NCBI GenBank assembly: GCA_001600815.1
Contig: BCKZ01000010.1
Span: 451,527 to 487,103 of the forward strand
Direction of reading: 5' to 3'
DNA length: 35,577 nt
Source of the DNA: Alloascoidea hylecoeti
Lineage: Eukaryota
How positions within the stretch are numbered: the stretch's first letter is position 1; every line of letters starts with the position of its first letter. Positions 4,491-35,223 of the stretch are shown here, in pieces. The notes under the pieces were generated by a model. The model was given only the letters and a program-made list of their open reading frames with translations. It had not been told where the DNA came from and did not search any database. The position numbers and the translations under genes are program-made.

Positions 4491-4783
4491 TTATTCTTTT
4501 TATTTTTACTTTTCCTGTTTCCCCGGGAGAAAGCATACCGAACTTCCGGAATATTAATGATAAAGAATCGAGATATCGATATTAAACATTCAAGAGTTCT
4601 TTATTTTTGGGTAAATTATCGATCATTATTGATAGAGATCACATCTTTGTTTTCATTGTATTATTCGTCGGGTTTATATTTTGTTAAAGTTCACAACACT
4701 CTTTCATGTTGTGGGTGATAAAAGTATATAAACCTTCGAATCCCCCCTTCTCTCCTTTCTTTCTCCATATCACTCTTCTAGAA

Positions 4784-12567: not shown

Positions 12568-15500
12568 TCAAGTTCTTGATCTCTTATCTTGACTTACATT
12601 TGGTCCATTTTCTGGAAGAGACCTTTTAAGACGATTAACTTGAGGTCTTGGTAAGCCGCCTCTTGGTTGCGGTAATTTTGATCCTCTATTAGCATGACTT
12701 CCTCTTATCGCTCCAGGTCTACCAGGGAGATTAGAAGAAACATTTTTATTGACCGTACCTTCTTGATTGTGGGAAATCTTAGGAGCATTCGATTGATTCA
12801 TCATTTGAGAATTAACTTGATTCATTAACTGTTGATTGTGTTGATTCATCATCTGCGAATTCACTTGATTCATTAATTGTTGATTTTGCAAATTCGGTGT
12901 TGTTGGCCGTTGACGAGGAGGACCCTGTAATCGTTGCATTTGTTGGGGCTGATTATTGTGGTTTTGATTTTGACCTAATATCACACTATGTCCTTGAGGA
13001 TTATGATTTGTAACTTGATGTACTGGTATCTGACTAGGTGAGATATTATGCCCCGTGTTAGGGTTGGGGTTAGTCCTATTTGCTGGCGATGATTGTTGTC
13101 CTCCTCCAGAGATTTGTTGTCTCAATGAATCTCGTTCTGCTTGAATCTTTTCGATTTTTCCTTGTAGTAACTTGTTCTTCATTTCAAAAGATGACGCTGC
13201 TTTAACCTTATTATTCGCATCTTCTAATTTCTTCTTCAGATCTGTAATCACATTTGAGTTCTCAGAATCACCCTTACCTGGACTTTGCTTTTCTAATTCA
13301 ATAACCTTAGCATCAAATGTTTTTTGTAAGGCTTCCTCCTTTTCTTTTAAATCAGCATCCATTTGAGCCTTGATAATAGCCACCTTTCGCTCGGCGATTT
13401 CTTTTAGTTTTGCTTCACTTGGAGCACGTAATGTCTTTTTAGCTTTCCCAACAGCCTCCTCAATTTGTTCTTCAAGTTGCTTTTTATGTTCTTCATTTGA
13501 AATAAACCCCTCACCTGGGGTTGTACCAGCTGTACCATCAGTGGAAGTTGATTTTAAAGTTGTAATTTCCAATTGGAGAGAATCTATTTGTTTTTGGTAA
13601 TTTTCTTGAAGGGCTTGTTTTTCTTTTAGATAGTTGATTTTGGCAGTCTCAACCGCTTCCGATGACGATGAGTCCCCAGCAACGTTGGATTGTGCAGCTG
13701 CTAACTTGCCTTCCAATTCACTAACTTGTGTTTCAAGTCTTGTTTTCTCTTCCTTATTCTTTTCCACTTGAGATTTTAGCTCAGAAATTTCTTTATTGTA
13801 CTTTTCGATTTGATCGTTAATAGATTCTTTATATTTTGAATGTGATTCATTTGCTTGTGCTAGCTCTTCTGATAAATTCTTGTAATCATCCCTTAGCTTT
13901 TTACTCTCATCTCTTCTAGATTTTAACTTTTGAATAGATTCATTCTTTAAATTTTCAAATCTAGTCTGTAATGTGATCAATTCGGCTTTAGTAGTTTCAT
14001 ATTCTGTTGCATTTCCAGCGACAGCTCCTGCCTTAGCTTGTAATTCTTCGATTTGTTTTGTTTTACTTTCAAGTGCTTTCGTATGAACTGCAACTAAAGT
14101 TTCTTTCTGATTCTTTAATGTTTCAGACAACTTCTCTAATTCTGACTTTTGACTAGTCAATTCCTCAATATTCTTTTCTAATTCTTCTACCTTTAATTTA
14201 CAAGCATTGAACTCAGCAGGATCAACCCGGTCATATTTTTGCATAATTGATTGTGCACGACTTTTCCATCTATCTTTATCTTGTTCAAGCAGTGTTATTG
14301 TATTGATTTTTAATTCAAGCTCAGCTTTAACATCCGAAAGTTCACCTATTACCAAGGGAGGAAAAATGTTAGTTGTCACACTTTTGAAAAAAAAATAAAA
14401 AATAAAAAATAACAAAATTACTTACTCTTCAATGGCTCTATTGCTGTTTGTAGTCGATCAATTTCTTTTGTCAGCTCAACCAGTCTTTTTCCTTTATGTT
14501 CATTTTCAGTTCTCAATGATCCATTACTTTCTCTTAAGATATTCAATTGATTGATTTTCTCAAGAAGTTCCTCATGAGCAGCATTCTGGCGAAGAGTGTC
14601 ATCCCCTCTTTGTCTTTCCTTTACCAACTCCATTCTGGTTTCTTCGAGTGTTGAAGTTGTATGGTCTAATCGTTGTTTTAAGCGTTTTGCTTCTTGGACA
14701 GAAACTTCAAGTTGTGTATCAACAATTTCCTTTTCACGACGTAAGAATCGAATGATATCTCTAAATTCTTCGGTTGATCCATCTATTGTGTCAGCTGCTG
14801 GGGTGAAACTGTCGGATTTGTTTGCATCTTTATTGTTATTGGCAGTTAATATTTCAAGTTGATTGTGTAAGAGTTGATTTTGTGAAACTAAATCTTCAGC
14901 CCTATTTTTCAAGTTGGAGATTTCTTCGTTAAGTGCAGATTTCTGAGAATCCCAACTTGATTGACTTGACTGAAGAATACTTTCAGCTCTAGTTGCATTA
15001 TTTCTTGTCTCTTGTAACTCTTCCTTAAACTTATTATATTCTGCCTTCAGTTCCTGGTACTGTTTACTACTATTGGCATGCTTCATTAATTCTTCTTGGT
15101 AATTTATTTCGGCTTGTTTAGAAATTTCGGCTTGGCGACCAAGATCACTTCTTAACCCTTCATTATTTTGATTCAATTTTGATACTTCACTAGACAAATT
15201 TGTGTTCTCGCTTATCAGATTATTTCTTTCTTTTTGTAAAGCTTCAATAGATGAACCTGATTGTCGCTGAGTTTCTTTCAATTTCTTATTCACAGCTTCC
15301 AACTCTTCATTAAGATAACTTAATCGACTCTCTGCTTCCTTCAGTTTACCTTCTGTAGTCAATTTATATTCATCAAACGATTCCGTCATACTTTGTAATG
15401 CTTCTTCGGCAGTACTTGCAATATTTTTAAATTCCTCCACATTTTTATTACCGCTCTCAATCTGACTTCTTGAAGATTCAAGTTCAATATTAAGAACTTT

Positions 15501-18500
15501 AATTTGATCACGCAGCGCTGTTTCATCAACGGTAGATGTGGTTTCTTCTTGTTGTTTTTCTAGAGCAGCTAACTGTTGTGAAGTTACCTTTAACTCCCCG
15601 GTCTTTGATTGAAGTTGTTCCTGTAAGCTACCAATTGACTCCTGAAACTTCTCTAATTGATTTGTTAGATTATTAATCTTATCTTGCGATGCCTTATCTT
15701 CAAAATCTTTTCGTAGTTGTAAAGCACGTAATTCTAAAGTTTGATCTTCTAAACGTTTCTTTGATGATTTTAATTCAGATTGAATAGATTCAATTTCATT
15801 CTCTAACCGACGTTGACGTTCAGATTCAGACCGTTCACGATCAGTTTGAATATTTTGTAAGTTTATCACGAGTGAATTCAACCTAGTTCTTTCTTCAGTT
15901 AATGATTTATTATCTTCATTTAATCTCTTTTCAACCGAATTCCAAAGTGATTTCTCTGCTCTTAAGTTCATAATTTCAGATTTTAAAGATTCACTTGTTG
16001 ATTTAGCATCAACTAAATCTTCTGCAACTTGTTGTGTTCTAATATCTTGTTTTGATAAAGTATTTTGAAGTTCATTATTTCTCTTTTGTAGTTCTTCATT
16101 TTCAGATTTTGAATACCTAATATTCTCCAACAAATTTTTATATCTTTCATCAAATAATTCTAATTGGCTTTGTGCACGAGCTAATTGAACACTGATTGAA
16201 GATTTGTCATTTGAAAGTTGATCAATTTGATCGTTTAATGTCTTAATTGTAATATTGGTCTCGTTTCTAAATGCTTCATATGAAGATTCAACCTCTTGTA
16301 ATTTAGTCTCGATTTCTTTATTAGTTTCTAATAGTTGTTGTTCATGTTCATTAGAAGAAAGAGATTGGGCATTACCGGTATTACTAGCTCCATGGGAGGA
16401 AAGTAATTCTCTAAACATATCCCGTTCCCTCCTCATGGCCTCGGACTTGGTTTGAAGGCTAGAGAGCTCTTCTTGAAGTGTGATGATTGCCTCCTTAGCC
16501 TCAGATACAGCTAAAGTTTCCAAATCTTCAATTTTTTGTTGAGATTGAGACTCATTATTTTCCATTTCTCTACCCAACTGTCTTGTAATTTTTAATAATT
16601 CTTGATTTTTCTTCTGTAAATCAACAACATTCTTAAAAACAACCAATCTTTGAGATATAAGACGATCTGTATCTGATTCATGTTGCTCTTCCAAAGTGCC
16701 ATCTAAAGCTTTTTGTAAAGCATACCTTTCTTCAGAAGATAATGGACCTTCATCATCATCTCTAATTTCAATCTGAATTAATAATTGTTGAACTTGTCTA
16801 CCCAAATCATTAACTTGTTTATTTAAGATCGTAATTTCCAAACTTTTATCTTTAACAAGTAATTCATTATTTCTAACTTGAGAGAATAATGCATCTTTAT
16901 CATTATTACTGTTTTCTAATAAGACACTCATTTCAGCTAATTGCTCCTCTAAAAATTCAGCGCGTTCTTTTGTTGCTTGAATGACAGGTGCTTTAGACTC
17001 CAACTCTTCAATAAATGTATCAATCTGCTGCTGCATGAGTTCCTTGGTTTTACGCTCCTGTTCTAATTGTTTTTGCATGACAATGAAATCTGAATATAAT
17101 TGACTAAGACTAAGTGAGCCTTTTTGTTTAGAAATGATAGCTTTTGCTGAAGGCGACAATATACCAAGAGTTGTTGAACCATATCTAGATGGAGTAGAAG
17201 GAGTAGGTGTGCCATGTATTGACATTTCACCATCACCATTTGGTTCTTCTGATGCGACAGCCAATTCCTCAATAGTATTCTCCAATTCAGATATTCTTGC
17301 TTTTTGTTCAATATTTAAAGATTTATATTTATCAACTTCATGTTTCAAANATGCTTGTTCATCGATAATTGAATTTCTAATATTTTCCAAATTATTTTCA
17401 AGCTGTTCTATTCTATCTCTTCTTTCTTCAGCAGATACTTTATATAAATTAACAAGTCTATCTTTAGCAGACATTTCTTTTGCAAAATCTTCNTGATAAC
17501 TAGATTTTTCATCTTGTAATCTTTTAATACTCATTAATGATTGATCTAAATCTTGGCAAGATTTTTCAAATCTCGATTTTAGGATATCATTAGAACTGGT
17601 GAGGGTAGCCAATTCAGATCTTGATGATTCTAATTCAGACTGTAAAGTACCCATTAATGATATTTTTTCTTTTCTGTAAGAACTAAATTCTTGAGTTTTA
17701 TTTGTTAATTCAGTATTTAGCCAATCATTACTTTTTTTGGTCATTTCTAATTCTGTTTCAAGTTGTTGAGCACGAAATTTTGAAGTAATAAAAGAAGATC
17801 GTTCTTGTTGTGCTTGATTTTCTAAATCACTAATTAATTTCCTATTCTCTGATTGATTTTTATGAAGTTGATCAATTTCTTGTTTCAAAGAAAAAATTTC
17901 AGAATTTTTCTTTTCAAGTAATTCTAATGTTTGTCTCTTTTCAGCATTTAATTGAGTTATTTTTTGATTAAATATTTTACCTTCACCAGTATTAGTTGAA
18001 GAAGATTCAGAGTTTTTTTGAACTTTTTCTAAAAGTTTTTCTTTATCTGATTCAAGAGTTTTGATTAATTCTTTTAATTGTTCAGCTTCTTGTTTTGTAG
18101 ATTTTAATCGGAAATTAATAGCAGAAATACGGGTACTAGCAGTATGTGATATTTGTCCATTCGTTACTTCAAGTCTTAATTTTTCCGTTTTTAAATTTTC
18201 TAATTCATTTGCTCGAAGTGTAATACTATCCAAGATCTCCTTTGGAAGATTTGAGACAATTTGAATGGAGCATGATAAAAAAGAAGAAAGATAATTGGGG
18301 TCTGGCTCATCGATTGTCTGTTCTTTATTAATATCTTTAGCTTGAAGAGGGGTTCTTTTCAAGACTGGTTGTCGAGCTTCATTGGTAGGAAGTGGAGACG
18401 ATGGGTCTTGATGAACAGAAATTGATGTTTTTGGTGACCTAGGTACCAAAATGACTTCCGGGTCATCATTTCCATTTTTAAAAGGCTGTTGTTGTTGATT

Positions 18501-18830
18501 GGGTTCTAGGGGATCTTTAAAATTTTCAGTTAGGTCTTCGCTCGTGTATTGTTTATCTAAATGAGCAGGACTATCATTAGCATCTGTCATAGACACATCT
18601 TGAGTATAGGAGTCATCCGCCACAGGCTCAACCCCTTTAGTTACTTCAACTCTAGTGCTTTCTTCATTAGATACAGGGGAAGTGGACGAAATTTCCTTCG
18701 AGGTTTCTATTTCTTCATTATTAGGACTCTCTGAAGAGATGACAACTTCCTCTGTTGATGGAACGTCTTTCGAAAAAGACTCATCATTATCGTTTTCAGT
18801 CATCGCGATCACACTCAGCACTGGATGCAA
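12568..18830 (-). CDS. MLP1: Nuclear basket coiled-coil protein Mlp1/TPR; exons 18830-14426 and 14345-12568
   Basis: TPR/Mlp motifs WLNTEL, SLSQLYSD, FIEELESKAP, LISQRLVVFKNVVDLQKKNQELL, NYQEELMKHA, IIRFLRREKEI, LNILRESN and RWKSRAQSIMQKYDRVDP. Intron GTAAGT(14425)..AACTAAC..TAG(14346) joins the ORFs in frame (PLK/SELSDV). The start may be 18803 (MTEND). Two N bases occur at 17350 and 17493. Confidence 0.93.
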
Positions 18831-19661
18831 AAAGTACTATGAAAGATAATACTAAAAATACAATTGAAAGGGGTAACGATGAAGAGATTTAACAGAGGAT
18901 GTTATCTTTAAAAATTGAGTGGTGAAGACGCGAATTCCGGGTAACAATAAATGAGTACATTTTAAACTTGCTTTTATTCTGCTAATATACACTTGAGCCG
19001 ATTTGAATTGTCACCGAGTGAAAATATTCAAATATTAATATTACCAAAGTCAATACCCTTCTAGCTGAAAGTAAGGTGTAGTGTTTCGTCAGTGAAGGGT
19101 AATGGGACAAAACATGCTTCTCGGTCACCCCAAACTGTTGCCATGTGCCAGTACTATGTAGTTGGGTTCAAACCATGGTCGAAATGCTCGCAATCTATAG
19201 GTGTATAAGCCACGCATCGGCCAAAATATCTGGGTTGGAGACCGCTAATGCAGCCTGCTCGACCTCTGGGAGAATTGTGTGTGCTCGCTTTTAACTCCCC
19301 ATAAATACTTTCTTTCTATTTTTTTTACTCCTTTTCGTTTGAATTTTTCTTTTTCTTTTTTCTTGAAGCTGTAAATTATAAGATTTATGATGATTATTGA
19401 CTGTCTATAGCTACAGGTATTTGGCTTGGATTGGGTATGAGCTTGTCTCGCCTCGATGCTCGCCGGAATTCCAAATTTGTGTTCGAATGTTCCGCGATGC
19501 GCAGCCTACTACAGTTCCAATGTCACTCAACAGCCCATAGACTCCATGCTACGAGTCTATAGTATAACGGTGGGGTTCTGGTCCCAAAATGTTTCCCTCA
19601 GAATACGTGAAACTTTTGATAAACTTTATTTGTGAATATATCTTTTTTGGGCCATTCGAAA

Positions 19662-20410
19662 TAAATGACCTGGCCTGGCTTGACTACGGAGAAAAAGTAA
19701 TATCTCGTACGTGTCGGATCAGATCATTCCTATGTTAAAATTGGTAGAATTGTACAAGCCGCCAAAGTTATCTTCGGGATATCGTAGGGGTGTGATAAGA
19801 TAATTAGAAAAAGGTCCTATGATGCGATATTCTGCTACGGAGAAGTTTCAGGGAAAGACATACTTAGAGGCTTCTAACAAAAATGTGGTATTACGGGTAG
19901 CAATACCTTTTATTCAAGATTTTGAAGCTAGTATAATATAGGACAGTTCCCCAATTTATGTATCAAAAAAGCAGGAGGGAAATCAAATGGAACAACTATG
20001 CTCCTGGACAAGCATAGTTGTTCCCGACATAAATCCCATTGAAACCCGCTTAGCACAATCCCCCAAAGTGACCAGATAAAAATTATAAAGACTTATACAA
20101 AATGAAAGCTGAACTTAATAAGGTCAAGAATCGTGTTTCAGTTATATTCTCAGAATTATGGGAACAGTTAGATCAATCACGTCTTGACCACTCCTCGAAT
20201 ACTTATCGCATTCATGCAATGCGACTAAAACTAATAGTAGAACTAAAAGGAAGGAATAGTAACTTTTAAAATTGCATTAAGTTATGTTTAGACAGGTTAT
20301 GAAACGTTGTTATTTATATTTTATTTGGTAATAATTCCTTGAGAATTGTCTTTTAATCAAGATTATATGTTAATACATTTTATGTTTTCCAGAAACAGAA
20401 AGGCCCAGTG
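19662..20410 (+). mobile_element. Degenerate Tc1/mariner DDE transposase relic (left copy)
   Basis: One frame from 19891 reads LRVAIPFIQDFEASII*DSSPIYVSK...WTSIVVPDINPIE (D at 19942, E at 20041; compare FQQDNAP.H and WP..SPDLNPIE). Upstream SDQ lies at 19714-19722. Downstream ELWEQLD...MRLKLIVELKGRNSNF* resembles Tc1 C-termini. A possible end is GGCCCAGTG-TA at 20402-20412. Confidence 0.75.
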
Positions 20411-20477
20411 TATAGTAGATAAACGTTAACAGATATTGGGTTACATTTTTGTTTTACTAAGAAACAAACATACCAAG

Positions 20478-20975
20478 TTATAAACATAAAATCTTGATTA
20501 AAGGGGAAATTCTCAAGTAAATATTACCAAATAAAATATAAATAAATTTCCCTAACCTTTTGAAGTATAATTGGAGACAATTCTAGCTGTCTTTTGTCTG
20601 GTCGCTTTTGAGATTATGCCTGACGGGTTTCAATGTGGGCTTGGACCAACACAGCTGTTCCATCCTGTTGAAAAATAATACTTTTAAAAGTTTGAATAAA
20701 AAGTATTTCTACCCGTTAAAATACTTTTAAGCTTCACTAAAACCTCTTCGTATTATGTATAAACGAATATCGCGTCTTTTTTCTCGAACTTTTTTGTAAT
20801 TCCTTTACTAGACCCATACGATTTGGAAGATAACTTTGACCTTACTTGAGTTGGGCTGGTATACTCTAAGGTGGCGGTGACTTCATTACAAAAGGGGGTC
20901 CAACATAGGTGTGACCTGATCCAACCAAATGACCGATATATTACCTTTGCTCTGTAGTAGACCATGTCAGTCATA
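20478..20975 (-). mobile_element. Degenerate Tc1/mariner transposase relic (right copy, inverted relative to the left)
   Basis: The minus strand aligns block-wise with 19662-20375. It reads VIWLDQ (~20930-20915; compare VIWSDE) and FIQTFKSIIFQQDG (~20700-20660). It lacks ~190 bp present in the left copy. Confidence 0.75.
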
Positions 20976-21005
20976 TTTTTTTATTAGTCAAAAATGAGTA
21001 CATAC

Positions 21006-21222
21006 ATTTTAATGAACTTTGCAGAAATCTCAATCTCCTTTGATACTAAATTTATAGATATCAGTTGTTACAAGGTTGAACATTTTGGGGGTTGTTCAAA
21101 ATGTTGGCTCTACTCTTAGACCAAAAACATAATATACTGAGTTATCTATTCAAAATATCCTATGTAGCGAAAATAAGATCCGATAGAAACATTACAAAGA
21201 TCTTATTCGGGAACTTTTGTAT
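21006..21222. repeat. Dispersed repeat, blocks A (21006-21113) and B (21119-21222), both also found near 35 kb
   Basis: A matches 35112-35223 in direct orientation (CAGAAATCTCAATCT, AAATTTATAGATATCAGT, AACATTTTGGGGG, TTCAAAATGTTGGCTCTAC). B matches the reverse complement of 34944-35062 (GACCAAAA..ACTGA..TCTATTCAAAAT..AAATAAGA..TCCGA). Confidence 0.8.
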
Positions 21223-21464
21223 GCTTTCAGGTGAGATTAAGTATTCAACACAACTTTTGACACGGAAGAGGAAGGTAGTCAAATTGATTATAAATGCAAA
21301 TAGGCCCACTTTTAAAATATTGTGGTTAGGAATCAGCCCGAAGATAAGAGAGAGGGTATTATGTGCGGTTCGATGAAGCTACAAGGTTAAGATGAGTATG
21401 GATAATCAAAGCAAGAAATGAAAGAGTTTCATAATTGTTAAAAGTTTCATAGATTTAAATGTGT

Positions 21465-22298
21465 TTAATATGCTTTGTTTGCGAATTCTATCATGGGTTT
21501 TGCTATCTTTGAATACTGAGCAATAAATCTTCTATAATAGTTTGCTATTCCTAAGAATGATTGTGCTTCTTTATCATTTTTGGGTACCGGCCATTCCCTA
21601 ATGGTGGCTACTTTCTTATTATCCGGCATGATCCCATTACTTGTGATCTTATGTCCTAAAAAGTCTAATTCTTTCAACATAAATGCACATTTTTTCTTCT
21701 TTGCTCTAAGTTTGTTAGCTCTAAGTTTCTCCAATACCAGTTTGACATGTTTTTCATGCTCTTTCTCGTTCTTTGAGTATATTAAAATGTCATCTAAATA
21801 TACTATCACAAACTTGCCCTTAAAATCTGCTAAAACATCATTCATAACGTACTGAAAGGTGGCCGGGGCATTGGTTAACCCAAACGGCATTACATTCCAT
21901 TCAAAATGTCCATCTTTCGTTGTGAATCCTGTTTTCGCCCTATCTGATTCCTTTATAACAATTTGGTGATAGCCAGATATCAAGTCTAACTTCGAGAATA
22001 CTTTAGCACCATGTAATTGATCTAACAAGTCATTGATTACCGGTAAAGGATACCTATTCTTAATCGTTTGGTTGTTTAGAAGTCTATAATCAACACATAA
22101 CCTCATACTACCATCTTTTTTCTTCACAAATAACACTGGTGCCGAATATGGGGATTGTGACCTAGATATTGACCCATTCTCCAACAGTTCTTTTAACTGT
22201 CGTTGTAGTTCTTCATTATCTTTATATGACATTCTATAGGGAGCTCTAGCCGGTGGTTTAGACCCTCCCATTCTCTCTATGTTATGATAACACTGGTG
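21465..22298 (-). pseudogene. Ty3/gypsy reverse-transcriptase fragment (left arm)
   Basis: Motifs PYRMS, SPYSAPVLFVKKKDGSMRLCVDYRLLN, FSKLDLISGYHQI, VMPFGLTNAPATFQ, VYLDDILIYS, FLGH and QSFLGIANYYRRFI. It is truncated after EFANK. No gag, protease, RNase H, integrase or LTR is recognisable. Confidence 0.95.
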
Positions 22299-22319
22299 CC
22301 GAATATGGGGATTGTGACC

Positions 22320-23180
22320 AATATACAACCAAAAGGAGTATCGGACAGACACCACCAGTTTTATCATAACATAGAGAGAATGGGAGGGTCTAAACCACCG
22401 GCTAGAGCTCCCTATAGAATGTCATATAAAGATAATGAAGAACTACAACGACAGTTAAAAGAACTGTTGGAGAATGGGTCAATATCTAGGTCACAATCCC
22501 CATATTCGGCACCAGTGTTATTTGTGAAGAAAAAAGATGGTAGTATGAGGTTATGTGTTGATTATAGACTTCTAAACAACCAAACGATTAAGAATAGGTA
22601 TCCTTTACCGGTAATCAATGACTTGTTAGATCAATTACATGGTGCTAAAGTATTCTCGAAGTTAGACTTGATATCTGGCTATCACCAAATTGTTATAAAG
22701 GAATCAGATAGGGCGAAAACAGGATTCACAACGAAAGATGGACATTTTGAATGGAATGTAATGCCGTTTGGGTTAACCAATGCCCCGGCCACCTTTCAGT
22801 ACGTTATGAATGATGTTTTAGCAGATTTTAAGGGCAAGTTTGTGATAGTATATTTAGATGACATTTTAATATACTCAAAGAACGAGAAAGAGCATGAAAA
22901 ACATGTCAAACTGGTATTGGAGAAACTTAGAGCTAACAAACTTAGAGCAAAGAAGAAAAAATGTGCATTTATGTTGAAAGAATTAGACTTTTTAGGACAT
23001 AAGATCACAAGTAATGGGATCATGCCGGATAATAAGAAAGTAGCCACCATTAGGGAATGGCCGGTACCCAAAAATGATAAAGAAGCACAATCATTCTTAG
23101 GACTACTATTATAGAAGATTTATTGCTCAGTATTCAAAGATAGCAAAACCCATGATAGAATTCGCAAACAAAGCATATTA
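22320..23180 (+). pseudogene. Ty3/gypsy reverse-transcriptase fragment (right arm), frameshifted at ~23103
   Basis: Same RT motifs including YLDD. It extends slightly further 5' into the loop (QPKGVSDRHHQFYHNIE). GGACTACTATT versus GGAATAGCAAACTATT in the left arm is a 5-nt deletion plus one substitution. Confidence 0.95.
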
Positions 23181-24094
23181 AACACATTTAAATCTATGAA
23201 CTTTTAACAATTATGAAACTCTTTCATTTCTTGCTTTGATTATCCATACTAATCTTAACCTTATAGCTTCATCGAACCGCACATAATACCCTCTCTCTTA
23301 TCTTCGGGCTGCTTCCTAACCACAATATTTTAAAAGTAGGCCTATAATCAATTTTGCTACTTTCCATGTAAAAAGTTTATAACACTATCCATTACAATAT
23401 AAAACTTTATATGTAGTTATAGCGCTATGATACTAATTTGTAAAAAAAAAACTTGCACTATTTTAAAGAAAGGTCATTTAATACTTCCGTTATCACTAAT
23501 GGTGAAAATAGTAGTATTGGATCAGGACGAGGTGTGATCACTTTAATGGTTGATTTTGATTCGAAATCGAACAAGTCATAGGTTTATCCGACAGCCATTT
23601 AAAATAACCTATTTTAGGATCTATGGAATGAATAGTTTTAAATTTCATATGATCATTTGAATTTCCATAGATATTGGCAGCCGATACATATTTAGTCATA
23701 TCGAGATATGATTGTAGCATGTAAGAAGAAAGTACAGAGTATGAAGGGATGATATCTTAAAGGAATTAAATGCCTTTAATGATTCGGTTGGTTTTGTGCT
23801 GATAGATCAGGAACTGTAACACAATTTTACCATAGTTAAGAACAAATTTGCAGAAAAGGTATATTTGCACATAGGCCTTGCACTATGGTATACCATAGGC
23901 TTATAAAGTTATATAGTAACACCGAGCGTCCTGTTGATAAATGTGGATATTGCGATTGTAAGTTATATGGTCATCTCCCGATATTCTACCTAATTGTACG
24001 CTATAGCTATACGCAAATAAACAACAGTTATAAATATAGATGCACATATGGGTCTCTATAATTATATCTATAGCAATTATATGATTAGTAGCTA

Positions 24095-24240
24095 GTTGGG
24101 AGTTTTAGCTAGTTGAAAGAGAGCTATAAAAGTTTGTCACATCGAATCCATGGAGACTTTTCTGATTTCTCCAATAAGTGAATGGATCTCCATCCGATAA
24201 AACATTTTTAAAACTATTTGTATTCTTGCTGAGGTTTGAA
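24095..24240 (-). mobile_element. Possible hAT transposase C-terminal dimerisation-domain relic
   Basis: The minus strand reads QQEYK*F ... DPFTYWRNQK...FY[frameshift]ALFQLAK, reminiscent of the hAT E..Y..DPL.WW....YP.L..LA pattern. The match is short and degenerate. Confidence 0.3.
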
Positions 24241-24812
24241 CTTTCCATTATAACTAGGCCTATGGTTTGAATTAGTACTGTTGATATTATAACCATTTGA
24301 TAAGTTATTATCAGTTTCCAAAATAGAAACTGTAGGTGATAATTATAATGAAACTAGACCGAATATAGCGAAAATGGTTGGTAAATTTATTCTTCAAGGT
24401 TGATAATATTATAGAAGATGATTTAGTAGATGATAATTCATTATATAATTACCAGTTGATATAATATTTTTACTTGCATGATGATTTTAACTATGCATAT
24501 TGATTCCCAAAACGAATATTAGGATCTTCTATCATTTCATTGTAATATGGTAATTTGTTCGAATTTTGTAAATTTAAATGATTGATTTCCACTATCTCAT
24601 GACTTAACCCTAGAAATATAAACAAATCGTATTAGTGTCTTAACCTATTTCAAAGATGTTTAGCTATTAGTATAATAATAATCATTGTTAAAAATTGAAG
24701 TAACAAATAAAAAAAAAATTTTTTTTTTTTTTTGCTTTTTTAAGAAATATATATGTACCTTTTGTAATAATTATAATTATTTTCTTATCCACCACTATTT
24801 ATGATCTTTCTT

Positions 24813-27800
24813 TTAATTTCTTCTTCTTCTAGAACTTACTTTCTTTAAGAGAGATGTAACTCGATTAGTATTTTTCTTTTTCTTTGTATCTTCTTTTTTA
24901 TTGGAACGTAATTCTACTTCTCCAATTGTACTATCATCATCAAAAGAAGACGATAAAGATTCTCTTGATTTATTTCGAAATATATGTTTTGAAAAATTCT
25001 TACCTTTATTACCATTCGGAGTTAAATTGGTTGTCGGATTTGGTGTATTTGAAACACTCTGTGATTTCCCTGCAAGTGTTGATGTTGATGTTGATGATGG
25101 TGATGGAGATGGAGCTATTGATATTGAATTTCTAATCGGAATTGTTGCGGGTGCAGAATTTGGCGTCATTTTTGGCTCGATGGAAGTTTCGGTTATTGGG
25201 GTTTCAACTTTTATCTCCAATGGTTCATTCTCATCTATATGTAAATTTGATATCGGAGTGGTTGGCCTTTTGAATGATCTTGTTGAATTTGTTCTATGAT
25301 GATTGATTGAAGATGATGATCTTGCCAATTCTGGTTTTCTACTTGTTGGTGTAATTGATCTTGGAGTAATGGAAATTTTAGGTGTTGAAGATTCAGTTTG
25401 ATTTGAATCTTCTATAGGAATAATATTATGATTTGCTATAAATTCTTCATGAGATTCATATTCTTCATCCCTAATACCTGCTAATTTAACCATACTTTTT
25501 GTTTTTGTTAATTTTCTGTTTAAATCATTTGTTGATAAACTTGAAATCATATGATCAGATGGCGTTAAACTTGATCTTCTAAACTGTGATACTTCAGTTG
25601 AGATTATTGATGAGTTATCACCTTCATTAAATGAATCTAATTCAGGTATACAATCTTCGATCGTAGCATCACTTAAATTAATTGAAATTGATGTATTTGT
25701 GTTTGAATCATATGAAGCATGCATTGAATCCGATTTCAATGATGTAGAAGATAATGAATTAACTCTATTTGATTTTGCAATTGAAGGTGATGATCTTAAA
25801 GATAGATCATTTGGTGATAATGGATCAATTGAAGAATTATCATCATCATCTTTTGAATTTATTGTCTTATCATATGAAAATGAAAACGCAGGATCTAATG
25901 ATCTAACACTGTTTTCTTTTACTAATGGAATTGATGATGTTCTTATTGATGATAGATTTTTCATAGAATTTAATCGTCCTGATCTTGATGGATGGAAGTT
26001 ATTTGTTGGAGAGCTTGTTTTTCTTCTTGGTTCATTTTGTGATTGCGATTGTAATTGTGGTTGTAATTCTTGTCTTTTAAGAGATCCTCTTATAATTGAT
26101 TGTAATTGAACATTATCATCACTATTTTTGATTTCTTGATCGATTCTTTTGTTCTTATTTCTCAACGATTCACCACGAATAATAGATTGTAATTGAATGT
26201 TATCATCATTATTACTAATTTCTTCAACAATTATTCTATTCTTATTTCTAATCGAAACACCACGAATAATTGATTGTAATTGAACATTGTCATCATCATT
26301 ATTAATTTCTTTATCAATTAATCTATTCTTATTTCTCAACAAAGTACCACGAACAATAGATTGTAATTTAATAATTGGTGATTTTCTAATTTTAAAAGTA
26401 ATTTCTTTTAATAAATTATTATAAATACTTCTTTGTTTTTTACCTTTAATTAATGATTGTAATAAAATTGTTGACCCAAATTCTAAAGTTCTTTGAAATT
26501 CTAAATTTGATCTTCTAAATAATTTTTTTCTTGAAATTGATTGAAGTTTAATAATACCTAATGAATATTGATTTAATTGATTTTTAAATTTTTTAAATTT
26601 TAAATCATATTGATTTTTTTTAATTAATGATTGTAATTGAATTAATTTTTTGAGATTATTATTTTCATTTAATTGATTTTTAATATTATTAATAGATTTC
26701 TTTAAGTTCTTACTTTTTATTAATGATGTTAATAAAACTTGTGAATTTAAATTTAAATTTTTATTTAAATCATTATTTAATTGATTTTGAAAATTTCTTA
26801 AAAGGTAACCTCTTGAAATATTTTGTAATAAAATTGTATCATTTTCAAGAATTGTTAATTTTTCTTTTAATGATTTTAAAACTAATTTTTTTTTAAAAAT
26901 TGATTGTAAATTAGTTATTTCATCATTAATAACAACATCATTAAACAATTTATCTTTAATTAAATTTAAATCATTTTGAATTTTTTTTTGACGAATTATT
27001 GATTGTAAAGAAACTATTTCATTTTCATTATTAAAAAATGCTTGTTTAATCATGTTATTAATTGAATCTAAAACAAGTTTTTTTCTTATTATTGATTGAA
27101 GTTTTGTTAAATTTTCAGAATTATCAATTAATTTATTAAATATTTCATTTTGATTATTCTTATATTTTAAACTTCTTGATAATGATTGTAATTTAATAAT
27201 ATCTTTTTCATATTTATTAATTGATTTTAATAATTGATTAGTTGATTTTTGTAAATTTTTTAAACGTAATAAAGATTGTAATTGAATAATTGATATAGTT
27301 GATGATTCATTTGATAATTCATTTATTAAAATTTCATTTGAATTTCGAATTCTTTGTGCTTTTGTTATAGCTTGAAGTTTTTCAATATTTGGAATTTCAA
27401 GTTTTAATTCATTAATAGTTTTATTGGTAAAATTTCTATATAAATTACCTTTTATTAATGATTGAATTTTAATAATAGAATCTACATTATTTTCATTTTC
27501 AAGTTTATCAGATAATTCATTTAAATTTTTTTTAGATAATTTTAATCTTAGTAAAGCCTGAAAAGCAACGATATTATTTGAATCTTTTGATAACTCGTTT
27601 ATGATATTTTGATTTGAATTTCGATATTTTTTAGCTTTTATTATAGCCTGAAGATTTTCAATATTTGAAAAGTTTAATTTTGATTTTAATTCATTTAAAG
27701 ACTTTCTAGTTGAATGACTTCTCACTAATGATTGAAATTTAATAATAGATTCTTTATTATTATCAAATTTATTAGATATTTCATTTAAATTATTTTTAAT

Positions 27801-30263
27801 TAAGTATCTTCTTATTAAAGATTGTAAATTTGTTAAATCATTAAGACAATTTTCTTTCAATTCACTAGATATATCATCATTATATTTTCGACGATATAGT
27901 TCACCTCGAGCCAAAGCTTGTAAAATTGTGATATTCAAAAACTCTTTAGATAATCCATTCAAAACGTTTTCCTTTGATCCACGATATAATTTACTTTTTG
28001 CTATAGCTTGAAAATGTTTTAAAGTTTCTGAAGAATCGTTAGTCAATTCATTTTTTAACTTTTCATTGGAATGACGGAGTAAATAACCTCTTGCTATAGA
28101 TTGAACAATAACAATGGAATCATGGTTATCATCGAACTTATCAGATAATTCTTTCAGGGTATGTTTGGCTAATTGTAGTCTAAGTAAGGCCTGAAGAGCT
28201 GCAACATTTGAATTTTCAGTAAGATCGTTTATAAGCTTATCATTAGAATTATGATATAAGCGGCCTTTCACTATAGCTTGAAGAGCTTCAATATTTGAGT
28301 TATTTGATAAGTCGTTTATAAATCTTTCATTTGAATTACGAAATAACTCGCCTTTTACTATAGCTTGAAAAACTGCAAGATTTGAATTTTCAGTTATTTC
28401 ATTTATAATCTTATCATTATAACCACGGTATAATTGACCTTTAATTATAGCTTGAAGAGCTTCAATATTTGACTTTGACTGTTCAATAAGATTATCTATA
28501 AGCTTATAATTTGAATCACGAAATAATTCACCTCTTACTATAGCTTGAAGAGCTGTAATATTTGAATTTTTTGATAATTCACTTTTAAATCTCTCATTTG
28601 AATCACGAAGTAAATAGCCTCTTGTTAAAGATTGAATATCAACAATGGAATCATGATTATCATCAAATTCATCAGATAATTCTTTCAGGGTATGTTTAGC
28701 TAGTTGTAATCTGAGCAAGGCCTGAAGAGCTTCAATATTTGAGTTTCCAGTTATTTCATTTAAAACTTTAGCTTTAGAATCACGATGTAAGTAAGATCTG
28801 GCCATAGCCTGAAAAGTTAAAATATTTGAAGATGATTTAAATAATTCATTAAATAAGTTTTCTTTTGACTGACGATATAATTCACCTCTTGTTAAAGCTT
28901 GAAATTTTACGATATCTGATTCATAATCATAATCAACATTTTCTTCTTCGTCTTCTTCATTATCATCATCTTCAATAAAAGCGATATTTCCTTCATCATC
29001 ATCTTCTTCTCCATCACTTGACAAAGAATCAAGAAAACTTAAATCTTTTAATATGTCGTCATCATTATCATCATCTTCTTCAATAAAAGCTAAATCAGCA
29101 ACTTGTATATTATCAACTTCATTTAATTCATTTAATTCATTATTTTGATTATTTGATAAATCATCAGAAGTACTGTTATTATTAATTATTGCATCTAATG
29201 GAATTTCATGAGTTATAAAAGATTCATCAGGATTAATTGATTCATTATCATATTCATCAGAAGAAAAAATTAAGGCGTTATCATTATCATTATCATTATC
29301 ATTATCATTATAAATTGAATATGATGAAGAATTTGAAGAATGTGTAAAAGATTCAAATGATTTTGGTGGAAATGCTTCAAGTATTTCTTTTTGAATAGAT
29401 TTAATATTTTCATCTAGATCTATTTGTGAATCATTTTCATTTTCATCAAGTTGTAATTCGTTTTGATCTTCATGTTGAGATTGTGATTGTTGATCATTTA
29501 AATTTAAATTATCATTTACTATAGGAATATGAGATTCAAGAATTTTATAATGAACAGGAGATAATGATATTTGAGTAGTTTCAAAATTATTTTGATTTTC
29601 AATAGATTTATTATGATTTTGATTTTTCAATTGTAATGTATCATTTTGAATAGATTGTTGTAGTTGAAATTCTGGATTTTTAGCAATTATTGATAATGAA
29701 GATTTTAGATCATTTAATAACCAAACCCCAATTATTTTTAAGATAAATTTAAATTTTATTAACAATAATATTAAACAAGAAGTTAAAAATTGAAAAGAAG
29801 TTATATTTAAAATGAAAAATGGTAAAATTGTATTTGGAGGTGGGATTTTGAAGTTTTGAATAAAAAATTTAACCGAAGAGATCAAAGAAACGAAAGCTTT
29901 TGGTCTGTCAACGTTGATATCGATTAAAAATAATTGCAAGGGGTCCAATGGGCGCTCGGGAGTGAGGATAGTTGGCATGTCCAGAGAGAAGACATTCGTT
30001 TCTTCGTCACTGTAATCGTCGAATTGAGATGGATGGGGTTCGAATCCGAATTCCGATTCGGAAGGGATGGAGGTGGTGGTAACGGTAGTGGCCGTAGCAG
30101 CGATAGTGGAAGCCAGGTCGAACAGGTCGAACGTGTCGAACGTGTCGAACGTGTCGAACGTGTCTCCGAAGTCCGCACCGGGGGCGGCGGGAGAAGTCAG
30201 CTGGAGTCTCTGGGCTGTGGACTGTTTGTTAGTAAAGTTACGGACGCGACGCGACACCCACAT
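24813..30263 (-). CDS. Large protein with ~32 tandem IQ-like motifs, an N-terminal hydrophobic segment, an acidic region and a Ser-rich basic tail
   Basis: 1816-aa uninterrupted ATG ORF. [I/L]xx[L/F]Q[A/S]xxRGxLxR repeats every ~29-31 aa across 28920-26070. No CH, RasGAP or motor domain is recognisable. Confidence 0.85.
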   Translation of the reverse strand: MWVSRRVRNFTNKQSTAQRLQLTSPAAPGADFGDTFDTFDTFDTFDLFDLASTIAATATTVTTTSIPSESEFGFEPHPSQFDDYSDEETNVFSLDMPTILTPERPLDPLQLFLIDINVDRPKAFVSLISSVKFFIQNFKIPPPNTILPFFILNITSFQFLTSCLILLLIKFKFILKIIGVWLLNDLKSSLSIIAKNPEFQLQQSIQNDTLQLKNQNHNKSIENQNNFETTQISLSPVHYKILESHIPIVNDNLNLNDQQSQSQHEDQNELQLDENENDSQIDLDENIKSIQKEILEAFPPKSFESFTHSSNSSSYSIYNDNDNDNDNDNALIFSSDEYDNESINPDESFITHEIPLDAIINNNSTSDDLSNNQNNELNELNEVDNIQVADLAFIEEDDDNDDDILKDLSFLDSLSSDGEEDDDEGNIAFIEDDDNEEDEEENVDYDYESDIVKFQALTRGELYRQSKENLFNELFKSSSNILTFQAMARSYLHRDSKAKVLNEITGNSNIEALQALLRLQLAKHTLKELSDEFDDNHDSIVDIQSLTRGYLLRDSNERFKSELSKNSNITALQAIVRGELFRDSNYKLIDNLIEQSKSNIEALQAIIKGQLYRGYNDKIINEITENSNLAVFQAIVKGELFRNSNERFINDLSNNSNIEALQAIVKGRLYHNSNDKLINDLTENSNVAALQALLRLQLAKHTLKELSDKFDDNHDSIVIVQSIARGYLLRHSNEKLKNELTNDSSETLKHFQAIAKSKLYRGSKENVLNGLSKEFLNITILQALARGELYRRKYNDDISSELKENCLNDLTNLQSLIRRYLIKNNLNEISNKFDNNKESIIKFQSLVRSHSTRKSLNELKSKLNFSNIENLQAIIKAKKYRNSNQNIINELSKDSNNIVAFQALLRLKLSKKNLNELSDKLENENNVDSIIKIQSLIKGNLYRNFTNKTINELKLEIPNIEKLQAITKAQRIRNSNEILINELSNESSTISIIQLQSLLRLKNLQKSTNQLLKSINKYEKDIIKLQSLSRSLKYKNNQNEIFNKLIDNSENLTKLQSIIRKKLVLDSINNMIKQAFFNNENEIVSLQSIIRQKKIQNDLNLIKDKLFNDVVINDEITNLQSIFKKKLVLKSLKEKLTILENDTILLQNISRGYLLRNFQNQLNNDLNKNLNLNSQVLLTSLIKSKNLKKSINNIKNQLNENNNLKKLIQLQSLIKKNQYDLKFKKFKNQLNQYSLGIIKLQSISRKKLFRRSNLEFQRTLEFGSTILLQSLIKGKKQRSIYNNLLKEITFKIRKSPIIKLQSIVRGTLLRNKNRLIDKEINNDDDNVQLQSIIRGVSIRNKNRIIVEEISNNDDNIQLQSIIRGESLRNKNKRIDQEIKNSDDNVQLQSIIRGSLKRQELQPQLQSQSQNEPRRKTSSPTNNFHPSRSGRLNSMKNLSSIRTSSIPLVKENSVRSLDPAFSFSYDKTINSKDDDDNSSIDPLSPNDLSLRSSPSIAKSNRVNSLSSTSLKSDSMHASYDSNTNTSISINLSDATIEDCIPELDSFNEGDNSSIISTEVSQFRRSSLTPSDHMISSLSTNDLNRKLTKTKSMVKLAGIRDEEYESHEEFIANHNIIPIEDSNQTESSTPKISITPRSITPTSRKPELARSSSSINHHRTNSTRSFKRPTTPISNLHIDENEPLEIKVETPITETSIEPKMTPNSAPATIPIRNSISIAPSPSPSSTSTSTLAGKSQSVSNTPNPTTNLTPNGNKGKNFSKHIFRNKSRESLSSSFDDDSTIGEVELRSNKKEDTKKKKNTNRVTSLLKKVSSRRRRN
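30114..30164. repeat. 9-bp coding tandem repeat (GTCGAACGT / GTCGAACAG), ~5.5 copies, encoding DTF/DLF
   Basis: CAGGTCGAACAGGTCGAACGTGTCGAACGTGTCGAACGTGTCGAACGTGTC. Confidence 0.9.
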
Positions 30264-30596: not shown

Positions 30597-33500
30597 ATGT
30601 CTGATTTCGGGCTGTTGTGTGAGTGTTTTGAAGATTCGCTAGATTCCAGCCAGAAGATACGAAAGAATGCTGAATTCAATCTGAAACAGGCGGAGAATCT
30701 TCTCCCTGATTTCCCATATCAATGTTTGCACATAATAGCAACTGATTCTTTAAACCTACAATTGCGTCTCACTGCTGTTATCTACCTGAAAAATGTCTGC
30801 TCCAAAAACTGGAAGTCTTTTCGTCATGACGATAAAATTCAGCTAAGGTTACTCCTACTGAACATCATAACGACTTTGAATTCAAAAGATGTTATAGTTT
30901 TACAAAATAATCTGATTTCGATTCTAAAAAAAATTATTGAATTGGATTATGAAACAAATTCAAATTCAAATGAAAATGAAAATTCAAATGAAAATGAAAA
31001 TTGGAAAGATCTAGTTGATTTAGCTTTGAATTTATTAATAAATGGCTATAATTCAAGTGATTGTGAATCAATTCATTTAGCTTTGATTATCATATTAGAA
31101 ATTATAAAAATTATAAATCTACTCAATCATAATCAGAAAATAAAAGATTTGGATAAAATCTTGCATATTGCTTTTGATTATATTTTAAATATTGCAAATG
31201 TTTTGGTTGCTGATGATTCAGAAGATGCTGCGAAATTATTAAAACTGATTCTAAAAATTTATAAATTTACAATATACGTGAGTACCTTTTTTTCTTCAGC
31301 TCATTATCTCATTATAATTCTAACTTTTAATCAAAATTGATTATTTAAAATAGAAGGATGTGCCAATCCAATTACAACACCCAAATTCTTTAATACCATG
31401 GTCTACCCTACATTTAAACATAATTAAGAAAAAATTACCATCAAATGTCTTAATCTTAGACCTTGACGATAAGAATTTAAATCCATGGGTCAGATGTCAA
31501 AAATGGTCATATTTTAATTTATATAAATTATTCTTGATTGCACATAATCAAAATAATCACAATCATATGCATAATCATTATAACTCAAATTTTAAAAGAT
31601 TATTTATAAATTCATTTATACCTACAATACTTGAACAAATCCTAAACAAAATTCATTTATATTTAACTCATCATACCAAAGATGATAAAAATAATTATGA
31701 TTGGTTATCATCAAAACAATTATATTATATAATTTCAATTTTTGAATTATCAATCTTACATAAAAAATCATGGCAAATAATTAAAAAAAATTTAAAAAAT
31801 TTGATTGAATTTTTCATATTTCCGTTATTTAATGATATAAATAATGAATTATTATTGAAATTTAATGATGAACCAATTGAATTTCTAAATTTTTTTTTAA
31901 TTAAATTTGATTATGATAGTGAAAATAATGAAAAATATGATCATTTAAGTTTAGGATTAAGCTTAAGTTTAACAAATTCAAATTCAAATTCAAATTCAAA
32001 TACAAATGATTATTATTATGATTATTCAAAAGATGTTGATTTATCAATGATTAACTTTATAAGAAGATTAATCTTAAAGAAGAGAAATTATTCTTTAATA
32101 ATGATATTAAATTTAATAACAAATATATTAAATGATTATAATTCAACAGATTCAATAGAAATAGCACAAAAAAAAGAATCAGTTTTAAAAATAATGAGTT
32201 CAATTTCTGATTTAATTTTAAAATCTTTTTCAAATTTTCAAAATGATTATTCAGAATTAGAATATTTTTTAAAATTTTTTATAATAATTGATTTTAAATC
32301 CTCATTTAAATTTTTAAAAATTAGATCATTAAATATAATTTATAAATTTTTATCAATAAATTTTCAAAATAAAGAAATTTTATATGATATTATTAATGAA
32401 ACAATTAATAATATAAATAATTTTAAAAATCAAAATGATCTTAATGATGAAAATAATGAAATAAATTTAATTATTCAATTTCAATCATCTCTCATATTAA
32501 AAAATTTATTAATTTATCAAAAACAAGAAATTTTTCAATTTTTTTTAAATAATACATCATTAATTGAATCAATTATGATAAATCTTTTAAATTTAAATAA
32601 TTTAATTATAAAATATAATTTAAATGATTTAAATTTAAATGTTTTAGATGAATTTTTTGATTTATTTGGTGATGAATTAACTCCTTTTAGTATTGATTTA
32701 TGTAATCAATTATCATTAAATTTTATAAATTTATCAAAAGATTTAATTTCTATTCATGATAATGATAATGAAAATGAAAATGAAGATGAAGAATTAAATT
32801 TAAAAATTATTCAAAAACAATTATCTGGTCAAAGTATTTTAAATAATATTATTTCATTATTACAATCAATTGATTTATCAATTGATTTATTAAAAATTTT
32901 AGAAAAAATTTTAAATCCAATTATAAAGATTATATTAAATGAAAAATTATTTTACTATTATCATGAAATTTTTCAAATTATTGAAATATTAATTGAAAAT
33001 TTAAAATTTATATCAATTGAAATGTGGGAAATTTTTAAATTTATTATAAATTCAACAAATTTTTTTAATAATAATCAAAATAATGAAAATGAAGAAGATG
33101 ATAATGAAATTGAATTTGAAATTGAAATAATTTTAAAAAGTCTTAAAAATTTTTTATTATTTGGATTAAAAACTCATCATAATCATCATAATAATCAACA
33201 ACAAAATGAATCAATAAATAATGATGATATTATAAACAATGTAATTATTTCAATTTATAATATTTTCAATCATATAATGTCTACAACAAATAATTCCAAA
33301 TTTAATAATTTTATTAGATCAATTTCTTGTGATTTAACAACAACAATGATTTTATGTTTGAAAGATAATCATAAAAATCAAATTAATGATAATTTATTAC
33401 AAAATATAATAAATCAAACAATTACAAGATTTAAAACAACAAAATCTCTAAAAATTGAATATTTAATTAAATTTAAAAAGGAAAGTATAAATGGTAATGG

Positions 33501-34458
33501 TAATATTAATTATTGTATTAATTTATTAAATGTTTTAATAAGCTGTTTTTATTATAATCCAAATTTAACATTTCAATATTTAAATTCAATTGATCAAATT
33601 CAAAACCAATCTAAAAATGAATCAAAATTAAGATTTTTTGAAATTTGGTTTTTCATAATTCCTTATATTACAAGAGTTTTTGATTTAAAGTTATCAGTTC
33701 TAGCAATTTTATCAATTTTAAGCTTAAATTTAAATCAACAAGATTTACAACATCTGGAAAGTAATGATGATATGAATGGAAATTCAGATATTTTATTACA
33801 AGAAAATCTTTTAAAATATTTATTTATTTTATTAAAAAATTTACCAACTTCAATTAATAATCTTGAAGAACGTAAAATTATTAATAATGATTATAATTAT
33901 AATTTAAACAATCTTGAAAATGATTATGAAAATGACGATGATGATGATGATGATGATGAAGAGGATAACTCAAATTTAATAACTGAAGAATATCAAAAGT
34001 TTTTATCTAATGAATCAAAAAGATTAGAAGCATCACAGAATCATCATAATTACAACAATTCTAATGAAAATGATTATGATAATATTAGTGATACTGATTC
34101 TAATTATGATGAATTAGAAGAAGATATTTTAACAATTACTCCATTAGATGATTTAAATTTCTTTCTAATAGTCAAAGATTTTTTATTACAATTACATTCA
34201 AATAATTCATCATTAATTGCTTTTTTATTCAACAATAATAAGAATAAAAGATTTAGAAATCGAAGTGATAGTGGTGTTGGATTAATTGGTAATGAAGAAG
34301 AAAATATTAATTTAAATTTTAATATTAATAATTTAAAATCTTCATTTTTAAATAATAATTATTTTGATATTGAAAATGATATTGATTTAGATTTTGAATA
34401 TAAAAAAATATTACAATTTGTTTTGAATATGTCTAATGCTGAAAAAAATAAATTATGA
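30597..34458 (+). CDS. NMD5: Importin-beta family karyopherin (importin-7/8 type, Nmd5-like); exons 30597-31277 and 31354-34458
   Basis: IBN_N motifs IRKNAEFNLKQ and AVIYLKN. Intron GTGAGT(31278)..CTAAC..TAG(31353) gives LKIYKFTIY/KDVPIQLQ..PW..PWVRCQKW..NLYKLF as in Nmd5. Also DELTPFSIDL, RVFDLKLSVL and an acidic loop followed by TPLD. Sxm1 is not fully excluded. Confidence 0.8.
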
Positions 34459-34943: not shown

Positions 34944-35223
34944 ATAAAAACCTTCGAGAATGTATACTTTATATAATCTTCTTCGGAAGGTCTTATTTCT
35001 TATTATATACAATTACTACTATGTAAATTTTGAATAGAGAATTCAGTTCGAAGGTTTTGGTCCATACAATTGAAATCTTTAATCTACAACAAATTACCAA
35101 TGGAGCTATGTATTTTAATGAATTTTACAGAAATCTCAATCTTTTAATGATAAAAATTTATAGATATCAGTAGTTACAGGGTTAAACATTTTGGGGGAGG
35201 GGGTTTCAAAATGTTGGCTCTAC
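34944..35223. repeat. Second copy of the dispersed repeat blocks (B inverted 34944-35062; A direct 35112-35223)
   Basis: Visual alignment to 21006-21222. Confidence 0.8.

Follow-up and report, generated by a model that had tools for sequence, protein, structure and literature searches.

How does a budding yeast come to carry two pieces of one retrotransposon gene joined head to head across 54 nt, and does the resulting palindrome do anything? To address this question, we analyzed a 35,577-nt stretch of DNA, called the window throughout. The palindrome is a real genomic structure: it is a genuine local inverted duplication and not a product of retrotransposition. Our preferred reading, to which we give a probability of roughly 0.55, is that template switching at the DNA level produced the structure and that it is now a neutral relic of the rearrangement.

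How is the palindrome built? A preliminary description had placed head-to-head arms at 21252-22298 and 22353-23377 around a 54-nt loop. Repeat search and global alignment confirm this layout: they recover inverted arms at 21300-22298 and 22353-23345 on either side of the spacer, and a gapped alignment carries them past a 10-nt indel to 21252 and 23377 (Table 1). The inner block, 21549-22290 (742 nt), has zero differences between the arms, whereas the outer ~300 nt hold at least 8 substitutions and three indels (1, 5, and 10 nt), a divergence of ~3% (Fisher p 4e-5 for the contrast). Moving outward from the inner block, the arms show the 5-nt indel, 94 clean bases, the 1-nt indel, and 4 substitutions in 144 nt; beyond those 144 nt come the 10-nt indel and then 4 substitutions in 33 nt. 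The left arm was said to carry no internal stop in its reverse transcriptase (RT), and it is indeed open for 300 codons on the minus strand, belonging to a 300-aa ORF at 21465-22367. The frame of the right arm ends early through a 5-nt deletion.

Table 1. Palindrome, composite center, and surrounding genes, in window coordinates
Feature	Position	Strand	Remarks
Gene-poor interval holding the palindrome	18804..24812	.	6 kb, no recognizable gene
Left outer arm segment U	21252..21471	.	pairs with 23175-23377; non-Ty3, low-copy, inverted duplicate
Left arm, Ty3/gypsy RT fragment	21472..22298	-	antisense on + strand; ORF intact
33-nt exact direct copy of 22130-22162	22287..22319	+	includes templated insertion
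Spacer between arms	22299..22352	.	54 nt; hairpin loop if transcribed
Native Ty3 sequence upstream of RT core	22312..22352	+	right copy only
Right arm, Ty3/gypsy RT fragment	22353..23174	+	sense on + strand; frameshifted at 23105
Right outer arm segment U'	23175..23377	.	inverted copy of 21252-21471
Genes encoded in window			phosphofructokinase; tRNA-Leu; HORMA (Hop1-like) protein; Icp55-like M24 peptidase
Further window genes			PCI protein; PPR protein; long coiled-coil protein; IQ-repeat protein, 1816 aa; importin-beta

What do the arms carry? Each consists of ~830-860 nt of Ty3/gypsy RT and ~200 nt that is not recognizably Ty3, with one Pfam RVT_1 match per arm (E 2e-41 and 1.7e-41). The Ty3/gypsy type is given by 50-62% identity to Ty3/gypsy polyproteins and by a YLDD motif in the translation. 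Seven such polyproteins—the four most similar and three long ones, among 120 matches listed—were used as tblastn queries, and all seven match the window only at 21471/21474-22286/22310 (minus, with 50-61% identity) and 22311-23175 (plus). Protein homology to Ty3/gypsy thereby ends at 21471-21474 and at 23172-23175 with 7 of 7 polyproteins, and these queries gave no further match with E <0.2 to other pol, gag, or integrase pieces in the window. Repeat searches of the window found no LTR-type direct repeats flanking the palindrome. LTRs, gag, protease, RNase H, and integrase are all absent by repeat search, tblastn, and Pfam, which bears out the earlier picture of an RT core fused to non-RT flank and nothing else of the element. 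Sequence databases hold more distant RTs: a search for longer homologous proteins, looking for a near-identical RT or a full-length element, reached 62% identity at best among 120 listed; a search for close protein homologues reached 59% at best among 120 listed, a list from which the window's own ORFs are absent; and metagenome contigs yielded 79 RT loci, none a near relative (best identity 58%).

Two other identities for these segments were rejected. The outer segment U had at first resembled, by eye, a decayed thumb/RNase H region; neither tblastn nor Pfam detects pol in it, and other copies of the family diverge sharply at 21472 into an open frame, while its low copy number rules out an LTR. 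The divergent ORFs 21465-22367 (-) and 22284-23114 (+), each starting in the opposite arm, are not domesticated RT genes: their ATGs arise where a Tyr-His codon pair within the palindrome is read in antisense, they overlap across the 54-nt center with no room for a promoter, and one of them is frameshifted.

In what setting, and in what host, does the palindrome sit? The window consists of AT-rich nuclear DNA (28.5% G+C) from a budding yeast. Among named relatives, the best matches of the Icp55-like protein (in Pachysolen, Wickerhamomyces, Candida boidinii, Ascoidea, and Lachancea) reach only 51-57% identity. The host thus belongs to a Saccharomycotina lineage that lacks close annotated relatives, and such low identity of a housekeeping protein allows no inference on RNAi from close kin. 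Within the gene-poor interval there is no ATG ORF longer than 91 aa besides the RT ORFs and their antisense. The flanks and outer arms of the palindrome (18804-21260 and 23105-24812) gave 0 Pfam families at E<=1 in 12 read-through frames, and an Rfam search of the interval gave 0 matches at E<=1. Nothing in the window suggests a promoter or selection.

Is the RT fragment a solitary remnant or one member of a living family? Ten public sequencing runs were listed, four of which hold at least half of the sampled words; two of the four come from one sample, one from the same organism in another study, and one from a wood-decay metagenome, none of them being an RNA run. We compared the Logan contigs of runs X1, X3, X4, and X5 with positions 20900-22430, which cover the left half of the palindrome and its center. 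Summed contig depth over the RT reaches 100-700 in X1, against 21 in the flank, with a like excess in X3 and X4, and the RT part is represented by many variant contigs; the RT thus belongs to a multi-copy family. Among 36 variant sites within 21472-22298 (taken from 40 of 120 variant rows, after two in U and two in the spacer were dropped), 29 fall at third codon positions and 30 are synonymous. Such a bias is the pattern expected of elements propagated under selection for a working RT, so the Ty3 family appears to have been propagating. Its other copies carry open pol sequence on both sides of the RT. Judged from copy number, open flanking frames, and synonymous bias, the family looks active, as the preliminary description of a recently active Ty3 family supposed.

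The other family copies also show where the Ty3 sequence of the palindrome stops. Their loose ends leave the arm exactly at 21471/21472; past 21472, by hand translation of the loose-end consensus, they stay in frame with a Trp-containing motif of RT-thumb type, whereas the window sequence hits a stop two codons beyond the point of divergence. Contig depth over U, the outer ~200 nt, is near that of the flank. Because the family copies diverge at 21472 and U lies near flank depth, U is not part of the Ty3 family.

How, then, did the two copies come to face each other? The arms stop at one point of pol (21472 and 23174) and both run on into a shared non-Ty3 extension, which means that a single fragment and the DNA beside it were duplicated as one block at the DNA level. 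Neither retrotransposition nor two separate insertions would yield shared end points plus a shared extension.

The center is composite. In its spacer, a 21-nt templated insertion (22299-22319), whose source lies 157 nt off within the same arm, gives way to 33 nt of native Ty3 sequence from upstream of the RT core. The insertion is bounded by a 12-nt microhomology with one mismatch and by an 8-nt microhomology: the first 12 bases of the segment 22287-22319 match the expected left-arm end, one mismatch aside, and its last 8 bases coincide with native Ty3 sequence at 22312-22319. Other family copies match the window from 22312 or 22319 rightward, with an open pol frame upstream (loose ends; hand translation), which marks 22312-22352 as native Ty3 sequence present in the right copy only, and polyproteins P0112 and P0116 extend to 22311 in tblastn. 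Since only the right copy keeps this native stretch, it was likely the original. The makeup of the spacer points to template switching at the DNA level; foldback-priming and template-switch models of inverted duplication in yeast are reported to predict microhomology together with a short templated insertion (PMC10622511).

The template-switch reading can be laid out as a series of putative steps. The series would have begun with a 0.86-kb internal fragment of Ty3/gypsy pol that had lost both ends of the gene, retained the RT fingers, the palm, and part of the thumb, and lay beside ~200 nt of unrelated DNA (U'). A template switch in the course of DNA replication or break repair would then have copied this block, fragment plus U', in reverse orientation directly upstream. 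At the center, the switch would have passed in order through the 12-nt microhomology, the 21-nt insertion from 157 nt away, the 8-nt microhomology, and the original copy. The outer arm ends would have diverged later, while the inner 742 nt stayed or became identical, presumably via arm-to-arm or ectopic gene conversion. The only activity predictable for such a relic would be a read-through transcript folding into ~1 kb of dsRNA.

What the data show directly is the structure, the anatomy of its junctions, the family context, and the folding potential; the order of events, the gene conversion, and the neutrality are inferred. Divergence that rises outward, combined with an open RT core identical over some stretches to family copies, suggests that gene conversion acted later, with the other arm or the family as donor; these stretches appear as contigs with 0 mismatches at 3-4x flank depth. 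An ancestral allele lacking the left arm was seen in none of three data sets, and the event order is a reconstruction.

The preliminary description had reasoned from the instability of long palindromes in yeast, a premise that needs correcting here: a 54-nt spacer lies far beyond the loops of <9 nt that are reported as strongly fragile in Saccharomyces cerevisiae (PMC8053094). In that species, breaks at inverted repeats are described as dropping ~80% with a 9-bp spacer, Mre11-Sae2 attack as limited to loops <9 nt, and inverted repeats with long spacers as tolerated (PMC8053094). Because fragility falls so steeply with spacer length, a 54-nt spacer needs no special explanation.

Three observations count against a neutral relic. 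The same flank junctions appear across three data sets, so the rearrangement is not a fleeting one; an identical inner 742 nt with an open RT frame, set against diverged outer arms, could reflect maintenance; and in an RNAi-competent yeast such loci are reported as the main siRNA sources (PMC7528652).

Could the palindrome instead be a hairpin-RNA locus? In such a case, a read-through transcript would fold into a ~1-kb stem, Dicer would cut the stem into siRNAs, and Argonaute would direct these against the RT of the resident Ty3/gypsy elements. The expectation that a transcript from either side would form ~1 kb of dsRNA agrees with the predicted fold: -1805 kcal/mol for the plus strand and -1815 kcal/mol for the minus strand, vs. 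-456 to -506 kcal/mol for five shuffles, with a predicted stem of ~1,030 pairs that includes a 742-bp perfect helix. The target family is multi-copy and apparently propagating, going by RT depth and the 30 of 36 synonymous sites, and both the inner-arm identity and the persistence across data sets are compatible with maintenance. Precedents are reported in the palindromic loci of Naumovozyma castellii (PMC7528652, PMC6713810) and in maize Mu killer (PMC3440606), from which the idea of a transposon-derived hairpin silencer is already known. Set against these points, most Saccharomycotina lineages are described as having lost RNAi, with a patchy distribution among the others (PMC5499181, PMC4629796, PMC12663654), and Argonaute, Dicer, promoter, and transcript are all hypothetical for this organism. 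Silencing that worked well would also be hard to square with a Ty3 family that is still multi-copy and apparently active; in N. castellii, where such loci occur, no retrotransposon is reported to be active (PMC6713810). We therefore regard siRNA production from the palindrome as possible but doubtful. It could be either incidental or selected as a defense, and a selected defense would take up about a third of whatever probability siRNA production deserves.

In a bolder version, the locus would be an anti-Ty3 hairpin capable of renewing itself, housed in a deep-branching budding yeast and with an RT core that tracks the active elements. The palindrome would be old, since its outer arms are ~3% diverged and carry indels, and conversion from Ty3 cDNA or genomic copies would have kept the RT core identical, open, and near to the active copies. 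If this were true, the encoded dsRNA would keep tracking whichever Ty3 elements are currently active; we consider it unlikely. More generally, if siRNAs are made here, hairpin control of retrotransposons would extend from the Saccharomycetaceae to a distant, TE-rich yeast lineage, and the junctions would give a natural record of how a silencing locus is born. If none are made, nature would still have supplied a clean instance of local inverted duplication, with its microhomology and templated insertion, that is tolerated at a spacer of 54 nt; such a case is ordinary for the field.

Did the switch occur on DNA or during reverse transcription? In a cDNA-level origin, RT would have switched template on Ty3 RNA and snapped back on the nascent cDNA, and a chromosomal break would have taken up the resulting hairpin. 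A pair of jumps at microhomology around a short recopied segment is a trace typically left when RT switches templates. Read 5' to 3', the left arm corresponds to minus-strand cDNA, and arms with equal outer ends would result if copying went back as far as the cDNA 5' end. However, the outer ~200 nt of each arm are non-Ty3 and low-copy, the family copies diverging exactly at 21472, and non-element DNA in the duplicated unit would need a chimeric transcript. On account of U, a purely cDNA-level snap-back is disfavored, and we give this origin little credence.

Could the assembly have made the palindrome, by traversing one repeat twice or by misjoining two distant truncated copies through a chimeric center? 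Arms of 1 kb cannot be spanned by short-read contigs, a point in favor of an artifact. At the left, contigs bridge flank and arm with 0 mismatches in X1, X3, and X4 (three of the four runs, X5 having no cover there). The right flank-arm junction, the compared interval being the left half and center, appears as loose ends: one at 21300 in X1 and X4 (at least two of the four runs, among the loose ends listed) has a consensus equal to the reverse complement of 23346-23375, that is, the right arm with its own flank, and the X4 contig shares the right arm's 1-nt and 5-nt deletions. In X1 and X4, both unique flanks thus lead from opposite directions into one U-RT sequence, and X3 shows this for the left flank as well. 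Across three studies, each with its own data set, the flank junctions were found again, with the isolate sequenced in two and a wood-decay metagenome as the third.

At the center, an X1 contig covering 22130-22316 with 0 mismatches runs from the left arm into the spacer; it contains the first (left) center junction and is the only displayed contig crossing there, while the second junction is absent from the displayed pieces. X1 may itself be the source of the window assembly, which leaves some room for an artifact. Some runs' contigs also lack the window letters at 22267 and 22346, but minority variants are dropped when contigs are built, and a letter lacking from them does not count as evidence of absence. 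For the locus-specific contigs (21334-21607 and 21588-21855), depth is only ~1.1-1.6x that of the flank in X1 and X4 and 2-2.6x in X3. Two identical arms predict ~2x flank depth, although contig depth is not a copy number. At 21382 and 21394 the right-arm letters alone appear in all three runs; since contig building drops minority paths, we place no weight on either the depths or these letters. An apparent joint of opposite strands in X5, at 22271/22375, was rejected as an ordinary sense-copy contig, an effect of comparing the left half only.

The center, moreover, joins through 12 and 8 shared bases only, too short for a graph misjoin, and between the outer arms the assembly retained 4 substitutions as well as 2 indels, which shows that it did not simply use one copy twice. 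On these two grounds we judge the structure to be real, and an assembly artifact is very improbable. An inverted-repeat centromere can be dismissed, because such centromeres have a central core of ~1 kb or more between their repeats; a 54-nt spacer is too small, and the gene-free 6-kb setting is the only resemblance.

How does the palindrome compare with known systems? The palindromic siRNA loci of N. castellii were reportedly first described by Drinnenberg et al. in 2009, and the concept of silencing by transposon-derived hairpins is said to date from 2009 in yeast and from 2005 in maize. Palindromic loci are reported to supply 74% of siRNA reads (22-23 nt) in N. castellii, as the most prolific sources there (PMC7528652), with retrotransposon fragments described as a major siRNA source (PMC6713810). 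Like those loci, the present one is a long genomic inverted repeat in a budding yeast and can, by its predicted fold, form an RNA hairpin. For N. castellii, however, transcription, Dicer dependence, and Argonaute loading are reported as demonstrated, whereas the palindrome described here lies in a distant host lineage whose cognate Ty3 family is multi-copy with open frames. Maize Mu killer (Muk) is described as a natural partial inverted duplication of a transposon gene, with read-through from a neighboring gene as the proposed source of a hairpin RNA that would supply siRNAs for silencing the active element (PMC3440606). The likeness is a partial inverted duplication of a gene from an element of which active-looking copies are still present, that activity being judged here from sequence features. 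As reported, Mu killer alone has a DNA-transposon origin, included terminal repeats, a hairpin of ~4 kb, plant RdDM, and genetically proven silencing.

As a piece of chromosome structure, the palindrome invites comparison with an S. cerevisiae fragile site that is reported to consist of two inverted Ty1 elements with a ~280-bp spacer (PMC8053094). Both are natural head-to-head retrotransposon repeats with spacers of tens to hundreds of base pairs; the Ty1 pair, however, is two full-length independent insertions, whereas our arms are a single truncated internal fragment present twice, with the same end points each time. The foldback and template-switch duplications of yeast share with our locus a short spacer, junctions at microhomology or short inverted repeats, and fill-in synthesis with a possible switch (PMC10622511). 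Native Ty3 itself carries an 8-nt word at 22312-22319 and its complement at 22489-22496. Experimental foldback events are described as usually reaching the chromosome end, giving dicentrics or needing a second rearrangement (PMC10622511), unlike the local ~1-kb duplication found here, which kept both unique flanks and therefore required a second switch back. In its junctions, which combine microhomologies of 12 nt (one mismatch) and 8 nt with a 21-nt insertion templated nearby, the palindrome resembles a template-switch product.

What occupies the gene-free DNA immediately left of the palindrome of inverted Ty3/gypsy RT arms? The 2.4 kb at 18804-21250 contain no stop-free frame longer than 86 aa and matched nothing in Pfam or Rfam, and G+C reaches 37-42% at 19000-20250 as against a window mean of 28.5%. 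The stretch may harbor either a decayed element or a gene for a non-coding RNA. The left flank also carries a second, small inverted repeat (20310-20347 and 20508-20545), with 38-nt arms that are 95% complementary and lie 160 nt apart. A dispersed repeat of 108-113 nt occurs in two copies with 85% identity, one 140 nt left of the palindrome (21006-21113) and its partner close to the window end (35112-35223). The repeat is likewise without a match in Pfam or Rfam, and could be a solo LTR remnant or some other small mobile or regulatory element.

At the palindrome itself, we compared contigs from three public sequencing runs: two isolate data sets (X1 and X4) and a wood-decay metagenome (X3). 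Over 21334-21855, the depth of locus-specific contigs was about 1.1-1.6 times that of the flank in X1 and X4 but 2-2.6 times in the metagenome. In all these data, contig depth does not equal copy number, and contig building drops minority paths. At positions 21382 and 21394, none of the contigs of X1, X3, and X4 carried the letters of the left arm.

Several neighboring ORFs elsewhere in the window probably belong together. The HORMA-domain ORF and the one that follows it are probably a single Hop1-like gene whose reading frame is interrupted, either by a frameshift or by a short intron. The importin-beta and low-complexity ORFs probably form one karyopherin gene, with an intron or an error in the sequence separating its two parts. 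The tandem coiled-coil ORFs are likely a single Mlp-like gene; the only two ambiguous bases in the window (N at 17350 and 17493) both fall inside the larger of them. The IQ-motif protein is made up of many diverged repeats, with a unit of 87-93 nt and multiples thereof (repeat families D1, D3, and D6-D8).

Protein-coding features of the window
Feature	Position	Strand	Remark
HORMA-domain ORF	4706-5446	+	
ORF with weak PHD-like zinc-finger match	5511-6851	+	starts 64 nt after HORMA ORF
Coiled-coil ORF	12568-14244	-	in tandem with 14418-18803
Coiled-coil ORF	14418-18803	-	larger of the two
IQ-motif protein	26000-29000	-	region of the repeats; protein of 1816 aa
Importin-beta N-terminal ORF	30597-31340	+	
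Low-complexity ORF	31567-34458	+	963 aa; same strand as importin-beta ORF
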